Origin: Perkinsus olseni
Lineage: Eukaryota
Reading direction: 5' to 3'
Assembly: GCA_013115125.1 (NCBI GenBank)
Contig: JABANN010000001.1
Coordinates: forward strand, 124,001 to 188,000
Length of the DNA: 64,000 bases
In this document: positions 16,448-22,562 of the stretch, in pieces
Position numbering within the stretch: position 1 is the stretch's first letter
Layout: each line of letters begins with the position of its first letter
Notes under the pieces: generated by a model
Seen by the model: the letters and a program-made list of their open reading frames with translations, nothing else
What the model was told of the DNA's origin: nothing
Databases searched by the model: none
Made by a program: the position numbers and the translations under genes

Positions 16448-19311
16448 ATGGCCACCAATAGCAATATGAAAAAGTCTGTGTCGGCATCGCTGTCGGTCCC
16501 TCCTCGCGCGAGCAAGGCCGTGAGCAGCACCAAGGCTAACTTCGATGTCCGCCTCTTGCCCATGCAGGACATCGTGGCCGCCGCCCCCACTGAGGCCCTT
16601 ATCGAGTGGTATCATCTCCTCACCTCGGAGCTCTATCAACGCCAAAGTACCTCTCGACATCTTCACGACTGGACCTACTCTCTCCAGTACGCCCTTGTTG
16701 GTCCCTCTGGTGTCGGTAAGACGAATCTCAGACTTATGTTTACTGAGAACGTCTTCCGAGTTGCCTCTTCCCGTACTACTGGTGTGGAGTTCTCTAAGAC
16801 CATCGTTGACATCGACAACGAGCGCGTGAAGCTTCAGATGTGGGACACTGTTTGGGGCAAGTACACTGGCTCTTACTGTCACGGTGCTGCTGTCATCTTC
16901 TTCGTCTACGATGTCAGTAGACGTGAGTCTTATGATGAGCTGCTCAAGTTCCTCAAGGATACTCTTCCCACGCTCGACAGGACCATCACCAAGGTCTTGA
17001 TCGGTAACAAGGCTGATCTGCTCGGTCGCGAAGTTTCCGCCGAGGAAGCTGCTAGCTTCGCTCGTGAGAACGGCCTTCTCTTCATGGAGACCTCTGCCAA
17101 GACCGGACAAAACGTCAGGGACTGCTTCTTCAACTCAGCCAGACAGGTCCTTCTCCAGCTCCAGATGGGTATGATCGACCCCAGCTCCGCAAAGGGTATA
17201 CGCTCTGCTGCACGCAACAGCGATCATGTTACCACGGTCACTGAGCGCGGCAGTAATCTACTTCGCAACTCCGTTGTCAACAAGGCCGAAGCTTTCACCG
17301 ATAGTGAGCGTGAGGAGCTTGGTTTGGTCGGTTTGCTTCCTCCCAAGGTCTCGGATCTCGACGTGCAGTCCAAACGGTGCTATCAGCAGTTCTTGCAAAA
17401 CTCCAACGATATTGAAAAGTACATCTACTTGGAGAGTCTGCATGACAGGAACGAGACGCTGTACTTCAAGCTTCTTTGCGACCATGTTACTGAGATGATG
17501 CCGATCGTCTATACCCCTGTGGTTGGCAAGGCTTGCCAGATGTTCGGTCATATTTTCCGTAATGCTCGTGGTCTCTACTTTAACCTCTCAGAGAAAGGTA
17601 ACTTCAAGCAGATGGTGTGGAACAGCCCAGTTCGTGATGCCGATATCATCGTGGTCACTGATGGTTCCCGTATCCTAGGTCTCGGCGATCTTGGCACCAA
17701 CGGTATGGGTATCCCTATTGGTAAGCTGTCATTGTACGTGGCCTGTGCTGGTATCAACCCCGGCCGTACTGTGCCTGTCACCATTGATGTCGGTACCAAC
17801 AATCCGGATCTTCTCAATGATGATATGTATCTTGGTGAGCGTCACAAGAGAGTCGATGGTGAAGAGTTCTACGCCGCTGTGGACGAATTCGTCGATGCCG
17901 TCAAGTCTCGCTGGCCCGGTGTCCTCATCCAATTCGAGGATTTCACTAACGATCACGCCTTCCCTCTCCTCAAGCGTTATCAGGAGAACATTTTGTGCTT
18001 CAACGATGATATCCAGGGCACTGGCTCCGTTGCTCTTGCCGGTCTCGTCAGCGCTATGAAGGTGAAGAAGGAGAAGCTGGAGGACCAGAGAATCGTGTTC
18101 CTCGGTGCTGGCGCTGCTGCTGTTGGTATTGCTGACTGCATTGTTGCTGCTATGATACACGATGGCCTTACTCCTGAGGATGCGAGGAAGCGCTTCTGGT
18201 TCGTCGATTCCAAGGGTTTGGTCACCTGGAAGCGTGGTGGAAAGATTCAGGATCATAAGGTAACTAGGAGACTGGAATCTGGATGGCCGGCTCAGTTCGC
18301 TTTGATCTTTGAGAATGATTGGGTAGTCATCGTCGTTACGATCAGGTGCCTTATTGCCGTGACGACGAGGAGCCAATGACCGGCCTTCTCGAAGTCGTCA
18401 AGTCCATCAAGCCTACTGTATTGCTTGGTCTTAGTGGACAGTCAGGCTCGTTTACCGAGGAGATCGTCAAGGTAGGATAAGGACTGCCCCTTTTGTGTTG
18501 GTTCTTATCATGTTCTCTCTCAGGCTATGTGTGTCAACTGCCCTGAGCCTGTCATCTTCGCTCTGTCTAACCCCACACCCAAGGCTGAGGCTACACCCGA
18601 GCAGCTTTACACGTAGGCCTACAGCCGCATCGTGGGATATTCTGGTTATGATGGTCGTCACTTTCAGATGGACTGAAGGCAAGGCTTGGGTCTGCACTGG
18701 TTCTCCCTTCGGACCCGTCACTGTCAACGGCAAGGTCTATCAAGCGGGACAAGGCAACAACATGTAATTCACTTAGTAGTCTTGCTCGTCGGTCTTGGCG
18801 CACTTCGCGTTACTCAGGTACATCTTCCCCGGTGTTGGCTTGGCCGGTATTGTCGGCAAGTTCAAGTGGATTCCCGACTCTATGTTCTACACTGCTGCGA
18901 GGACCCTCGCCGAGAGAGTCACCGATGAGGATATCTCGCATGGCACTTTGTATCCTCGTCTTACTCGTATCCGCGAGCTCTCTCACGACATCGCTGTGGA
19001 GTGCATCAAGGAGGCCTTCGAGTTGGGCATCGCTTGCATTGAGTAAGTCTCCTGACTGACACCTCCCTCGTGTTCCTGCATGGGTCTTCTTTCTTAGGCG
19101 CCCCGCGGACCTCGATGAATTCGTCTGGGACCACATGTGGAAGCCGGAGTACTCTCATACCGAGCTTGACCCCTCTGTCCTCGCCTTCTCCGGCCAGGGT
19201 TCCGGTGTTGGTCGCAGCCAGGACAAGAACAAGCTTAGTGTCGGCACCATCCAGAACAAGGCCTTCTCCTTTACCGATATGGAGCGCGTGAACCCCAATC
19301 AGTTTATGTAG
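16448..19311 (+). CDS. Rab2-like small GTPase domain fused to NAD(P)-dependent malic enzyme, copy 1
   Basis: Exon 1 (16448-18259) encodes [35 protein letters not shown] and then, with no stop or intron, malic-enzyme motifs NKAEAFT..ERxxLGLxGLLPP, [45 protein letters not shown]. Later exons give LLGLSG, IFALSNP, GQGNNMYIFPG. Confidence 0.93.
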
Positions 19312-19731: not shown

Positions 19732-22562
19732 ATGGCGGGAATAAATATCGTCCAGCCGGCTTCGGCCAACGGCAGCAAGGCCAACTTCGATGTCCGCATG
19801 CTACCAATGGAGGATATTGTTGCGGCGGCCCCGACTGAGGCGCTCATCGAGTGGTATCATCTTGTGCTCTCCGAGCTCTACCATCGTCAAAGTGCATCGC
19901 CGCATCTCTATCGATGGACCCACGCTCTTCAGTATGCTCTAGTCGGCCCGCCTGGTGTTGGCAAGACCAACCTCAGACTTATGTTCACGGAAAATGTGTT
20001 TCGCGTGAGTTCAACCCCGACGGACTGCGTGGATTTCTCTAAGACCATCGTTAATATCGATGAGAACAGAGTAAAACTGCAGATTTGGGACACTGTTTGG
20101 GGCAAGTTTACAGCCTCCTACTGCCGCGGTTCGGCCGTCATCTTTTTTGTTTACGACGTGGCCAAGAGAAAGACGTATGAGGAACTCACGGAGTTCGTGA
20201 AGAAGAATGTGGGAAAGTTGAGTAAGAATGTTACTAAGGTGCTCATCGGTAACAAGGCGGACTTGCTCGGCCGTGAGGTCCCATCAGACGAAGCAGCCAC
20301 TTTCGCCAGATCAAACGGTATCCTTTTCATGGAGACCTCGGCGAAGGGCGGGCAGAGAGTCCGAGACGCCTTTCTCAACTCTGCCAGACAGGTGCTACTG
20401 CAAATCCAGATGGGCATGATAGACCCTGCTAACACGCCTGGCGTGCGAGTGTCCGGTCCAGAGTCCGGCAAGGTGGCGACCGTCTATGAACGAGGCCTGC
20501 ATCTTATGCGCAATCCTGTGTACAACAAGGCAGAGGCCTTCACTGAAGCGGAGCGTGAAGAGCTTGGTCTCATCGGTCTTCTACCACCAAAAATTCTCAA
20601 CATCGAGGTTCAAGTTCAAAGGTGTGTCCAGCAACTTCGAACCAAGGATACCGACATAGGCCGCTACATCTACCTGGAAGGTGTACACAACCGTAACGAG
20701 ACCCTCTACTTTCGCTTGCTACTTGACAACATCACCGATCTCATGCCGATCGTCTACACGCCCTCGGTGGGCCAAGCTTGCAAGGACTTCGATCGCATCT
20801 TCCGCGGTTCACGTGGTATCTACTTCAACCTGTCGGAGAAAGGCAACTTCAAACAAGTCGTTTGGAACAGCAACGTTCGTGATGCCGATATCATCGTGGT
20901 CACTGATGGCTCCCGTATCCTAGGTCTCGGTGATCTTGGCACCAACGGTATGGGTATCCCTATTGGTAAGCTGTCATTGTACGTGGCCTGTGCTGGTATC
21001 AACCCCGGCCGTACTGTGCCTGTCACCATTGATGTCGGTACCAACAATCCGGATCTTCTCAATGATGATATGTATCTTGGTGAGCGTCACAAGAGAGTCG
21101 ATGGCGAGGAGTACTACGCTGTTGTGGATGAGTTCGTGGACGCCGTCCGATCTCGCTGGCCTAACGTTCTCATCCAGTTCGAGGACTTCACTAACGATCA
21201 CGCCTTCCCCCTCCTGAAGCGCTACCGCAACCAGGTACTCTGCTTCAACGACGACATCCAGGGAACCGGCGCGGTGGCCCTGGCTGGAGTACTCACCGCA
21301 ATGCGGGCCAAGAATGAGGCTCTAGCGGACCAGCGCATCGTCTTTTTCGGCGCGGGATCGGCAGCTGTCGGGGTTGCCGACTGTATCGTTGCAGCCATGG
21401 TACACCAAGGCCTCACGGTGGAGGAAGCCAGGCGGAGATTCTGGCTGGTAGACTCTAGGGGCCTGGTCACCTCGAAGAGGGACGGCGAGCTGCAGGAACA
21501 CAAGGTACGCCGTCGTTGCAGATCCCGAGTTGTGCATGGCACAGCAGTTTGTCAGGTGCGCTTCTGTAGAGACGATGAGCCTCTTAACAGTCTACTGGAG
21601 GTGGTTCAAGTGGTCAAACCGACTATGCTGCTGGGCCTGAGTGGACAGTATGGTTCCTTCACGGAAGATATCATCAAGGTCATCAGCATCCTGTACTGTG
21701 GTCCAGTAATCTCTTCTGTTCTCAGGAGATGCACGCCCATTGTCCGGCACCGGTCATATTCGCTTTATCGAACCCGACTCCGAAGGCAGAAGCCACTCCC
21801 GAGCAGCTGTACATGTGAGGCTTGCTCGGCCCTTTATGGACGAGCGATGAAGGCTTTTCTCAGGTGGACCGATGGGGAGGCGTGGGTGGCCACTGGGTCA
21901 CCATTCAAACCAGTGTCATACAATGGAAAGATGTATACCCCGGGTCAAGGCAACAACATGTGAGTAGACAGCGAGCGAGCGTCTTGGGCGGTCACGGCTC
22001 CGAACAGGTACATTTTCCCTGGAGTTGGTCTGGCAGCCATCGTTGGCAAGTTCAAGACTATTCCCGATTCTATGTTCTATCTAGCTGCCAAGACCTTGTC
22101 AGAGAAGGTTACCGAGGAGGTAAAGTCTCACCGGTCGATCGCCGCCGTACCTTCCTGTCACTGCTGCGTAGGACCTAGCTAGTGGCCTCCTTTATCCGCA
22201 AATCAAGCGAATCCGCGAGCTCTCACACGCCATCGCTGTGGCTTGCGTGAAGGAAGCGTTGGACTGTGGCATAGCCCAGATAAGGTGCAAGGGGGGCGCC
22301 GTAGCGCCACATCAGTTCGGTGGAGCTTTATGCTTTTAGTCGGCCGGATGACCTCGAGCAGCTCGTCAGGGACGCTATGTGGCAGCCTGAGTATAGCCGG
22401 GTGGAACTGGATGCGTCAGTACTCGCTTACTCGGGTAGAGCTTCGGCTCCTCGTAAAGCCGGGTCGTCCAAACAGACCCTGGCGGTCTCCTCGTCTGAGA
22501 GCAAGTCGTTTTCCTTCTCGGATATCGAGAGGGTCAATCCCAACAGGCTTATGCCTTTTTGA
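19732..22562 (+). CDS. Rab2-like small GTPase domain fused to NAD(P)-dependent malic enzyme, copy 2
   Basis: Exon 1 (19732-21504) encodes [30 protein letters not shown] and the same malic-enzyme motifs; 3' introns lie at the same positions as in copy 1, plus one extra near 22120. Confidence 0.93.

Follow-up and report, generated by a model that had tools for sequence, protein, structure and literature searches.

A 64-kb stretch of Perkinsus olseni DNA (the window, to which all coordinates refer) carries on its plus strand, between positions 16448 and 22562, a tandem pair of genes that each join a Rab-like G domain to a complete malic enzyme in a single reading frame. An initial annotation had singled out the pair as a fusion of unusual kind, and the coordinates that it gave, 16448 and 22562, are exactly the first ATG of gene 1 and the stop codon of gene 2. 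Both models rest on introns of the GT..AG type and on the joints found in assembled contigs.

16448-19311, plus strand: gene 1, Rab-like/malic enzyme fusion, 6 exons, 853 amino acids (aa)
16448-18259, 18346-18471, 18524-18612, 18668-18763, 18818-19042, 19098-19311, plus strand: exons of gene 1
19732-22562, plus strand: gene 2, paralogous fusion, 7 exons, 842 aa
19732-21504, 21556-21678, 21726-21814, 21864-21959, 22008-22119, 22172-22284, 22340-22562, plus strand: exons of gene 2

The longest stop-to-stop frames of the window, 16415-18379 (654 aa) and 19621-21963 (780 aa), both on the plus strand, hold the first exons of the two genes, which measure 604 codons in gene 1 and 591 in gene 2. Within the one uninterrupted frame of gene 1, Pfam places Ras at residues 82-234 (E 1.7e-36), malic at 332-512 (E 1e-70) and the start of Malic_M, and the frame of gene 2, likewise uninterrupted, gives Ras (E 2.1e-35), malic (E 1.3e-69) and Malic_M (E 3e-51). 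That a Rab-type domain and about two-thirds of a malic enzyme share one exon in both genes, as had been claimed, is borne out by these models, which are complete and contain neither a frameshift nor a stop. The 11 introns are short, each of 47-86 nucleotides (nt), and all of them lie within the last third of the coding sequence. Stop-to-stop frames of at least 220 aa are few in the window, just 11, and in length the two first exons, of 1.8 kb each, far exceed all the others.

Public databases already contain the fusion proteins, which are named "Malic enzyme" there. Over exon 1 the protein matches the entry "Malic enzyme, partial [Perkinsus olseni]" at 100% identity and a P. chesapeaki protein at 74%, and an 853-aa public model of P. 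olseni, P0368, is 99-100% identical to our model of gene 1.

Transcripts of the fusion genes

Three public sets of assembled contigs, aligned to positions 15900-22620, carry the evidence: X2 is recorded as RNA, X1 is presumed to be so, and for X15 the kind of molecule is unrecorded. All 11 introns are present as GT..AG joints in the contigs, the five of gene 1 in X2, X1 and X15 and the six of gene 2 in X2 and X1. Since the introns have been spliced out, the contigs are transcripts and the gene models are right.

The junction between the Rab-like domain and the enzyme is crossed by contigs in both genes. In gene 1 (17183-17257) three do so, one each from X15, X1 (16432-17659) and X2 (16669-17659), and in gene 2 (20428-20490) the junction lies within contigs of X2 (19735-20904) and X1 (19756-20553). 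The X15 contig, of 2932 nt, spans 16423-19647, from before the ATG into the 3' untranslated region (UTR), with all five introns of gene 1 removed. Upstream of 16423, contigs of X2 and X15 continue with letters that are absent from the genome, 11 in X2 and 9 in X15. Joined to the genomic AG at 16423-16424, these loose letters equal the 3' end, 13 letters long, of PmaSL1, a Perkinsus spliced leader of 22 nt, as given in an excerpt of the source (PMC3101222). The gene 1 messenger RNA (mRNA) is therefore trans-spliced 23 nt before the ATG at 16448, and because the X15 contig runs from the spliced-leader junction through the Rab/enzyme junction, a full-length fusion mRNA of gene 1 exists.

16423-16424, plus strand: spliced-leader trans-splice acceptor AG of gene 1, identified by the loose contig letters that match the 3' end of PmaSL1
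16425-16447, plus strand: 5' UTR of gene 1, 23 nt, no ATG within it
19312-19664, plus strand: 3' UTR of gene 1, where contigs end at 19622-19664

Apart from the 11 introns, X1, X2 and X15 show no loose end or joint within either gene, and the spliced leader occurs in them solely at 16423. The fusion is thus real and not a merge of two gene models, as the initial annotation had maintained: one exon, one mRNA, and conservation in three species of Perkinsus speak for it. The same annotation had named the making of only separate proteins as an outcome that would count against it; here a leader-capped contig through the junction is the counter-evidence, while minor enzyme-only isoforms are beyond what contigs can rule out.

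No spliced-leader junction was seen for gene 2 in its contigs, which begin at 19735 and 19756, 3' of the ATG. Some 70 nt separate the contig ends in the 3' UTR of gene 1 (19622-19664) from the ATG of gene 2 (19732), and with such a small gap the pair could be made as a single precursor that is resolved by trans-splicing.

The Rab-like G domain

The G domain follows a leader and an N-terminal extension and occupies the same relative place in both proteins.

16673-17182, plus strand: Rab2/Rab14-type G domain of gene 1, aa 76-245 (Pfam Ras; Rab2B is the best solved relative)
16709-16723, 17006-17017 and 17090-17101, plus strand: G-domain motifs of gene 1, respectively P-loop, NKAD and SAK
16841-16861, plus strand: shortened switch II of gene 1, aa 132-138, WDTVWGK, with a 4-residue gap in alignments
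19918-20427, plus strand: Rab-like G domain of gene 2, aa 63-232 (Pfam and alignment), with its shortened switch II at 20086-20106

With 125.7 bits for gene 1 and 122.1 bits for gene 2 against PF00071 (Ras), where the cut-off is 21.6, both domains belong by profile to the Ras family. The best solved relatives in HMMER are Rab2B (137.9 bits, E 3.3e-39), Rab14 (134.3), Rab2A (132.9) and Rab4B (125.4), followed by Rab11 (about 106), and the nearest named free relative is "rab2a", P0241. The likeness to Rab2 that had been proposed therefore holds, with Rab2B at the top and the alignment reaching the end of the Rab2B construct; "Rab2-like" seems a fair description, and a Rab14 origin would be likewise possible.

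The feature that most affects how the protein is understood was overlooked in the initial annotation and changes the interpretation. Against both Rab2B and Rab14, HMMER opens a 4-residue gap in switch II, so that WDTAGQESFRS of Rab2 faces WDTV....WGKY in the fusion. In the Ras superfamily the glycine of the DxxG motif contacts the gamma-phosphate and drives the movement of switch II, and the glutamine positions the attacking water. The deletion removes this glycine as well as the catalytic glutamine, and the Rab G3 motif is hence missing from the fusion. In an alignment of 3 fusion rows with 31 of the closest free Rabs, the 4-column gap is found in every fusion row (3/3) and in no free Rab (0/31), 26 of the 31 free rows having DTAGQ, and WDTVWGK is present in all five independent Perkinsus sequences of the Rab-like domain.

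The motifs that bind the nucleotide have been kept. The P-loop (GxxxxGK[ST]) and NKxD occur in 31/31 free Rab rows and 3/3 fusion rows, SA[KR] in 27/31 and 3/3, and P-loop, NKxD and SAK are identical across all 5 Perkinsus sequences. The switch I threonine is retained in the fusion proteins, and the part of switch I that faces effectors is constant within each paralogue line. Neither protein ends in a cysteine, so the absence of a C-terminal prenylation motif that had been pointed out is real, and the linker and the enzyme stand where a Rab would have its tail. From these motifs we infer that the G domain still holds a guanine nucleotide yet has no working GTPase switch.

The malic enzyme

17258-19149, plus strand: complete malic enzyme of gene 1, aa ~271-800, with 5 introns inside (Pfam malic and Malic_M; family profile)
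17504-17518, 17717-17728, 17933-17944, 17999-18010 and 18104-18112, plus strand: enzyme motifs of gene 1, respectively YTP, GKL, EDF, NDD and GAG

On the unspliced frames of gene 1 and gene 2, Pfam gives 237.7 and 234.1 bits for malic and 96.5 and 174.7 bits for Malic_M. The gene 2 orthologue of P. chesapeaki, P0004, matches the NCBIfam profile PRK13529 from position 11 to 561 of 564 with 726.6 bits (cut-off 326), and the malolactic-enzyme profile scores 531 bits, below its cut-off of 850. The exon-1 part aligns with 24 solved malic enzymes (E up to 1e-20), starting at about their residue 6-77; as this is near the N-terminus of the solved enzymes, the G domain is attached almost directly to the native N-terminus of the enzyme. 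The catalytic motifs, whose residue roles are known from the malic-enzyme literature, were described as intact in the initial annotation, and YTP, GKL, EDF, NDD and GAGxAxxG are indeed found in 3/3 fusion rows; the bacterial rows have four of them in 33/33 and NDD in 31/33.

The nearest sequences outside Perkinsus are bacterial or metagenomic proteins of about 560 aa. Their identity is 60-63% when exon 1 is compared and 54-59% across 530 residues, and an unfused 650-aa enzyme of the alveolate Vitrella brassicaformis shows 51% identity over the 530 residues. We built a tree of 38 enzyme rows chosen from the matches of our searches (5 Perkinsus, 22 bacterial or metagenomic, the metagenomic rows being assumed to be bacterial by their length and contig size, and 11 eukaryotic) by a quick search, with branches valued by the Shimodaira-Hasegawa-like approximate likelihood ratio test (SH-aLRT) and no bootstrap. 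The five Perkinsus enzymes form one clade (SH-aLRT 100) beside Vitrella (90), and both stand beside a bacterial clade (94). A recent transfer from bacteria into Perkinsus was considered and dropped, as the tree puts Perkinsus next to Vitrella, with a value of 90 that is not strong, despite the bacterial best matches. With moderate confidence, the enzyme would be an alveolate one of a bacterial-like type.

Conservation and selection

Full-length fusions are found in P. chesapeaki as proteins of 850 aa (gene-1 type) and 843 aa (gene-2 type), and the 90% cluster of gene 1 holds the 853-aa P. olseni model, the 850-aa P. chesapeaki protein and several truncated P. marinus models. In P. marinus, where the models are of the gene-1 type, P0366 begins inside the G5 motif of the Rab-like domain, and the 727-aa P0376 is identical to it over 434 aligned residues and carries the whole Rab-like domain. 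In P. chesapeaki the accession numbers of the two orthologues, of gene 1 and of gene 2, follow directly on each other, and a longest contig of 161,156 nt is listed for both, in keeping with a tandem pair as in P. olseni.

Between P. olseni and P. chesapeaki the Rab part is 87% identical in gene 1 and 91% in gene 2, and the enzyme 93% and 90%. Exon 1 of gene 2 is 90% identical to P0004, and taken by region the whole protein ranges from 85 to 93%, the 17-residue leader excepted. The two paralogues have diverged much further, with 72% protein identity and saturated synonymous sites (proportion of synonymous differences, pS, 0.69 overall), and both fusions are complete; the earlier remark that the copies have diverged and still share one architecture was to the point. 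Between the paralogues the Rab part has a proportion of nonsynonymous differences (pN) of 0.16 against a pS of 0.78, and the enzyme a pN of 0.16 against a pS of 0.64, whereas change is less constrained in the linker (pN 0.50) and in the tail (pN 0.35). Judged by these values, purifying selection on the G domain is equal to that on the enzyme. In the enzyme tree each paralogue clade consists of P. olseni and P. chesapeaki (SH-aLRT 100), and the fusion, the switch II deletion and the duplication therefore predate the split of these two species.

17687-17859, plus strand: 173-nt run identical to 20932-21104 of gene 2, the longest identical run between the genes, in the malic N-terminal domain

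Over codons 391-480 the pS between the paralogues is 0.00-0.29, compared with about 0.75 elsewhere, and the identical run points to a recent gene-conversion tract inside the catalytic core. The contigs of X1 and X2 break at 17659-17830 and 20904-21075, where the genes share this run.

Leader, linker and tail

16448-16672, plus strand: leader (aa 1-30) and N-terminal extension (aa 31-75) of gene 1, delimited by composition and conservation
17183-17257, plus strand: variable linker of gene 1, aa 246-270, 36% identity between the paralogues, pN 0.50
19150-19308, plus strand: C-terminal tail of gene 1, aa 801-853, its last ~15 residues conserved, predicted to be disordered

In comparison with an ordinary malic enzyme the Perkinsus proteins have about 265 residues added in front and about 50 behind. 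The leader of gene 1 (16448-16537) has 30 residues with 5 K/R, no D/E and 15 S/T/A, and is thus basic, hydroxylated and presequence-like; that of gene 2 (19732-19782) has 17 residues, of which 1 is basic, and the same contrast between the leaders is seen in P. chesapeaki. The two paralogues may accordingly go to different compartments, to judge from the composition of their leaders. The N-terminal extension that follows (aa 31-75) is the most conserved part outside the enzyme, with 98% identity between orthologues in gene 1, 93% in gene 2 and 80% between the paralogues. It has no match in the ESM Atlas, and no relatives were detectable either there or in the search with residues 1-300. We also considered the extension as a membrane-binding amphipathic helix and rejected this, the top helical moments in the first 80 residues (0.41 and 0.38) lying outside the conserved helix. 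Nothing in the sequence speaks for the proposal of a membrane-targeted enzyme, with no lipidation motif in the protein and no match for the extension.

The linker, of about 20-25 residues, joins the G domain to the native N-terminus of the enzyme, and its identity between P. olseni and P. chesapeaki is 68% in gene 1 and 92% in gene 2. The tail of gene 1 is 91% identical to its orthologue and 51% identical between the paralogues. In both genes the tail ends (19264-19308 and 22509-22559) in a motif of about 15 residues that is kept in both paralogues and in all three species; such a motif may serve as a short linear binding or sorting motif.

An AlphaFold2 model was made of the 843-aa P. chesapeaki orthologue of gene 2 from an alignment of 67 rows, with a mean predicted local distance difference test score (pLDDT) of 82.2 and a predicted template modelling score (pTM) of 0.70. 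The predicted fold is confident for the Rab part (pLDDT blocks of 77-98) and for the enzyme, with a dip at the linker. The pLDDT falls below 50 at residues 1-60, where a helix is drawn at 35-51, and at residues 799-843 (25-32 in the tail). A two-chain prediction of the Rab part (residues 20-240 of P0004) against the enzyme (250-800) gave a score of 0.00 against a mark of 0.34, and we use it neither for nor against any reading.

Distribution of the architecture

Exon 1 was compared with 5.8 billion clustered proteins at lengths of 332-1057 aa, and among the best 120 of 7999 matches a Ras domain was present in 2, both from Perkinsus. Residues 1-300, scored alone at the same lengths, had 97 matches, with malic domains in 2, again both Perkinsus, the others being long Rabs; when they were compared with 1.84 billion representatives of all lengths, solely their own cluster covered them. 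Pfam found no malic domain in the ten top matches to residues 1-300 (0/10; nine long proteins and P0221). Eight of the ten are multi-Rab proteins or have a Rab joined to a kinase, to ankyrin repeats or to TerD. Another contains two Ras domains, and the remaining one, P0221, is a fragment of gene 2 with 147 aa. Starting from the enzyme part, and with proteins of 586-2000 aa, Ras was found in only two Perkinsus clusters among the best 120 of 6183; two of the 118 rows without Ras in that search, P0028 and P0060, are also among the rows of the exon-1 search.

Among metagenome contigs of the Joint Genome Institute (JGI), 369 stretches fitted the peptide pattern and 2 loci were confirmed, both of them ordinary intron-containing Rab genes with AGQE intact. 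Locus L002 (4001-4290) was rejected as a relative, its fit to the pattern being due to an intron that starts with GT after WDT; the next exon resumes with AGQE. Matches to peptide patterns can, as this locus illustrates, come from read-through into introns.

Among the titles and abstract openings returned by full-text literature searches, none dealt with a fusion of this kind or with the malic enzyme of any Perkinsus. The initial annotation knew of no characterised example, with which the literature searches agree, and the sequence searches gave no fused relative outside Perkinsus; it had also allowed that the architecture might already be widespread, and the protein and metagenome searches gave Perkinsus only. 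As far as these searches reach, the architecture is confined to Perkinsus and uncharacterised.

Discussion

Each gene encodes one polypeptide that consists of a leader, an N-terminal extension, a G domain derived from Rab2 or Rab14, a variable linker, a complete malic enzyme of the SfcA type and a tail. The Rab-like domain combines a G-domain fold, a lost catalytic motif and maintenance under selection, which is what defines a pseudo-GTPase. The most rational explanation, in our opinion, is that the Rab-derived module binds nucleotide and is catalytically dead, with no GTP hydrolysis and no classical movement of switch II. Without a lipid anchor, and permanently tethered next to the N-terminal domain of the enzyme, the G domain would most likely work in cis. 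It could tune the activity or the assembly of the malic enzyme by its nucleotide occupancy, or it could be a fixed surface by which the enzyme docks on a partner. The reaction of the enzyme would be the ordinary one, in which malate gives pyruvate, CO2 and NAD(P)H. To this reading, a nucleotide-holding pseudo-GTPase module that tunes in cis or docks an otherwise ordinary malic enzyme, we give a probability of about 60%.

Several points weigh against it. It is from motifs that we deduce nucleotide binding, the absence of hydrolysis and an influence on the enzyme, and the Ras superfamily has members that lack the glutamine and yet hydrolyse GTP when a partner assists, so that "GTPase-dead" is not certain. 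The N-terminal extension is predicted with low confidence, and the structural model was read from its confidence values, which do not show how the domains are placed relative to each other. The variable linker would equally fit a freely swinging domain or a proteolytic separation. The evidence from P. marinus consists of truncated or unnamed models, the contigs show the presence of the fusion mRNA and are unable to show the absence of enzyme-only transcripts, and the evidence for a full-length product is at the level of mRNA.

A bolder form, which we hold to be doubtful, is that the Rab-derived domain is a built-in guanine-nucleotide sensor, holding GTP or GDP according to their level in the cell, without hydrolysis, and setting the activity or the oligomeric state of the enzyme allosterically. 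If true, it would be the first known case of a Ras-superfamily domain acting as a cis-allosteric regulator of an enzyme of central carbon metabolism, with paralogues in two compartments.

The initial annotation favoured a guanine-nucleotide-regulated or membrane-targeted enzyme. In the form of a classical switch, the Rab domain would cycle between GTP and GDP, with or without exchange factors and activating proteins, and turn the enzyme on and off or move it to a membrane. That the P-loop, the switch I threonine, NKxD and SAK are kept and that the domain is under purifying selection would agree with such a cycle. The fixed 4-residue deletion does not, since it has taken the gamma-phosphate-sensing glycine and the catalytic glutamine from all 5 sequences and left the nucleotide-binding motifs in place. 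The Rab family motifs that overlap switch II are contact sites for regulators, and they are rewritten in the fusion; a prenylation cysteine is lacking as well. We consider both a classical GTP/GDP switch and a membrane anchor unlikely on this account.

We regard it as just as unlikely that the Rab-like domain and the N-terminal extension are purely an address label, which would dock the enzyme on a partner resembling a Rab2 effector or on the surface of an organelle, with no catalytic effect and perhaps in different compartments for the two paralogues. The strong conservation of the extension (93-98% between orthologues, 80% between paralogues), the difference between the 30-residue, basic and acid-free leader of gene 1 and the 17 residues of gene 2, and the effector-facing switch I that is kept within each paralogue line would all suit a label. 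It would, however, have to do without a lipid anchor and a known partner, and the extension that is part of it has no detectable relatives.

A good deal less probable is that each gene gives two proteins, either by a cut in the linker or by a dominant second mRNA that is trans-spliced internally, resulting in a free Rab-like protein and a free malic enzyme. Polyprotein precursors occur in dinoflagellates, which are related to Perkinsus, the linker is the least conserved part (36% between the paralogues), and contigs can show presence and not absence. But besides the 11 introns there is no loose end or joint inside the genes, and the spliced leader is found solely at 16423; a free Rab-like protein that has neither lipid anchor nor switch II would have no obvious role, and the two parts have stayed linked across three species and despite an old duplication. 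That the Rab part is a decaying passenger, a functionless relic of an accidental fusion, is suggested by the damaged switch II and is scarcely credible for a domain that is as constrained as the enzyme (pN 0.16, with pS saturated at 0.78), has 87-91% identity between orthologues, and shows the same deletion together with all nucleotide-binding motifs in 5/5 sequences, without a frameshift or stop.

Rabs are free, lipid-anchored switches of membrane traffic, and malic enzymes are self-contained metabolic enzymes. With Rab2, Rab14 and Rab4 the fusion shares the (predicted) fold, the P-loop, the switch I threonine, NKxD and SAK, and it differs from them in the switch II deletion, the lack of a hypervariable tail and of a prenylation cysteine, the 60-75-residue extension in front of its G domain and the covalent joining to an enzyme. 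The malic enzymes of the SfcA/MaeA type (PRK13529) are alike over the full profile and in all catalytic and dinucleotide motifs, but have no Ras domain in 118 of the 120 rows of either search (best 120 of 7999 and best 120 of 6183).

Other proteins come closer in one respect or another. The large Rabs Rab44 and Rab45/CRACR2A are prenylated and catalytically canonical. According to excerpts of two papers their Rab domain lies within a long multidomain protein, as it does in the fusion, and is C-terminal, after EF-hand and coiled-coil parts (PMC8016136, PMC7645795). The Rab domain of the fusion is instead N-terminal, with no lipid anchor and a damaged switch II. The pseudo-GTPase domains of p190RhoGAP are nucleotide-free. 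They sit in a regulator of Rho signalling and that of AAGAB in an assembly chaperone, and in both, as excerpts of the sources have it, a G fold within a multidomain protein is under selection after the loss of its catalytic motif, which is the likeness to the fusion (PMC5593906, PMC12490416). The fusion differs in that it keeps the binding motifs and has an enzyme of central carbon metabolism as its partner. In IcmF, which joins a MeaB-like chaperone to a mutase, and in ROCO proteins such as LRRK2, the G domain likewise acts in cis, its target being a catalytic domain within the same polypeptide. The G domain of IcmF is of the SIMIBI class and loads a cofactor, and Roc domains are active GTPases followed by COR. 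The fusion scores 50 bits for Roc, overlapping the 126 bits for Ras, and has no Pfam match to COR, so it does not qualify as a ROCO protein.

Pseudo-GTPase domains in larger proteins and G domains fused to catalytic domains are thus kinds already known, and the present fusion is limited to one genus; odd fusions are not rare in protists, and what the Rab-malic fusion does in the cell is a matter of inference. It is nevertheless expressed, anciently duplicated and selected, and would be a case of a Rab fold recruited for another use, where the loss of exactly the catalytic residues of switch II points to a new use as a pseudo-GTPase. The two genes offer a natural, genetically linked pair for studying how a G domain controls or places an enzyme that supplies pyruvate and NAD(P)H. 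Species of Perkinsus are alveolate parasites of molluscs that harm stocks of clam, abalone and oyster, and the fusion is a lineage-specific feature of their core metabolism.

Public gene models and neighbouring sequence

The public gene models of the locus are partly wrong, and the spliced contigs back the models presented here. Of the P. olseni models, P0003 and P0371 retain an intron, as they run on into intron 1 and then leave out exon 2 (18260-18523). Gene 2 is split in the public models (19732-25000) into the 147-aa P0221 and the 1125-aa P0380, and the latter merges it with a downstream gene that carries the actin-family Pfam domain PF00022. The gene downstream of gene 2, at about 23000-25000, is by this domain probably actin-related. 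Six other long frames of the window had no match in Pfam. Just past the stop codon of gene 2 there is a (CAT)n microsatellite at 22630-22665, which reads as a histidine run in one frame, that of the open reading frame 22499-22954.

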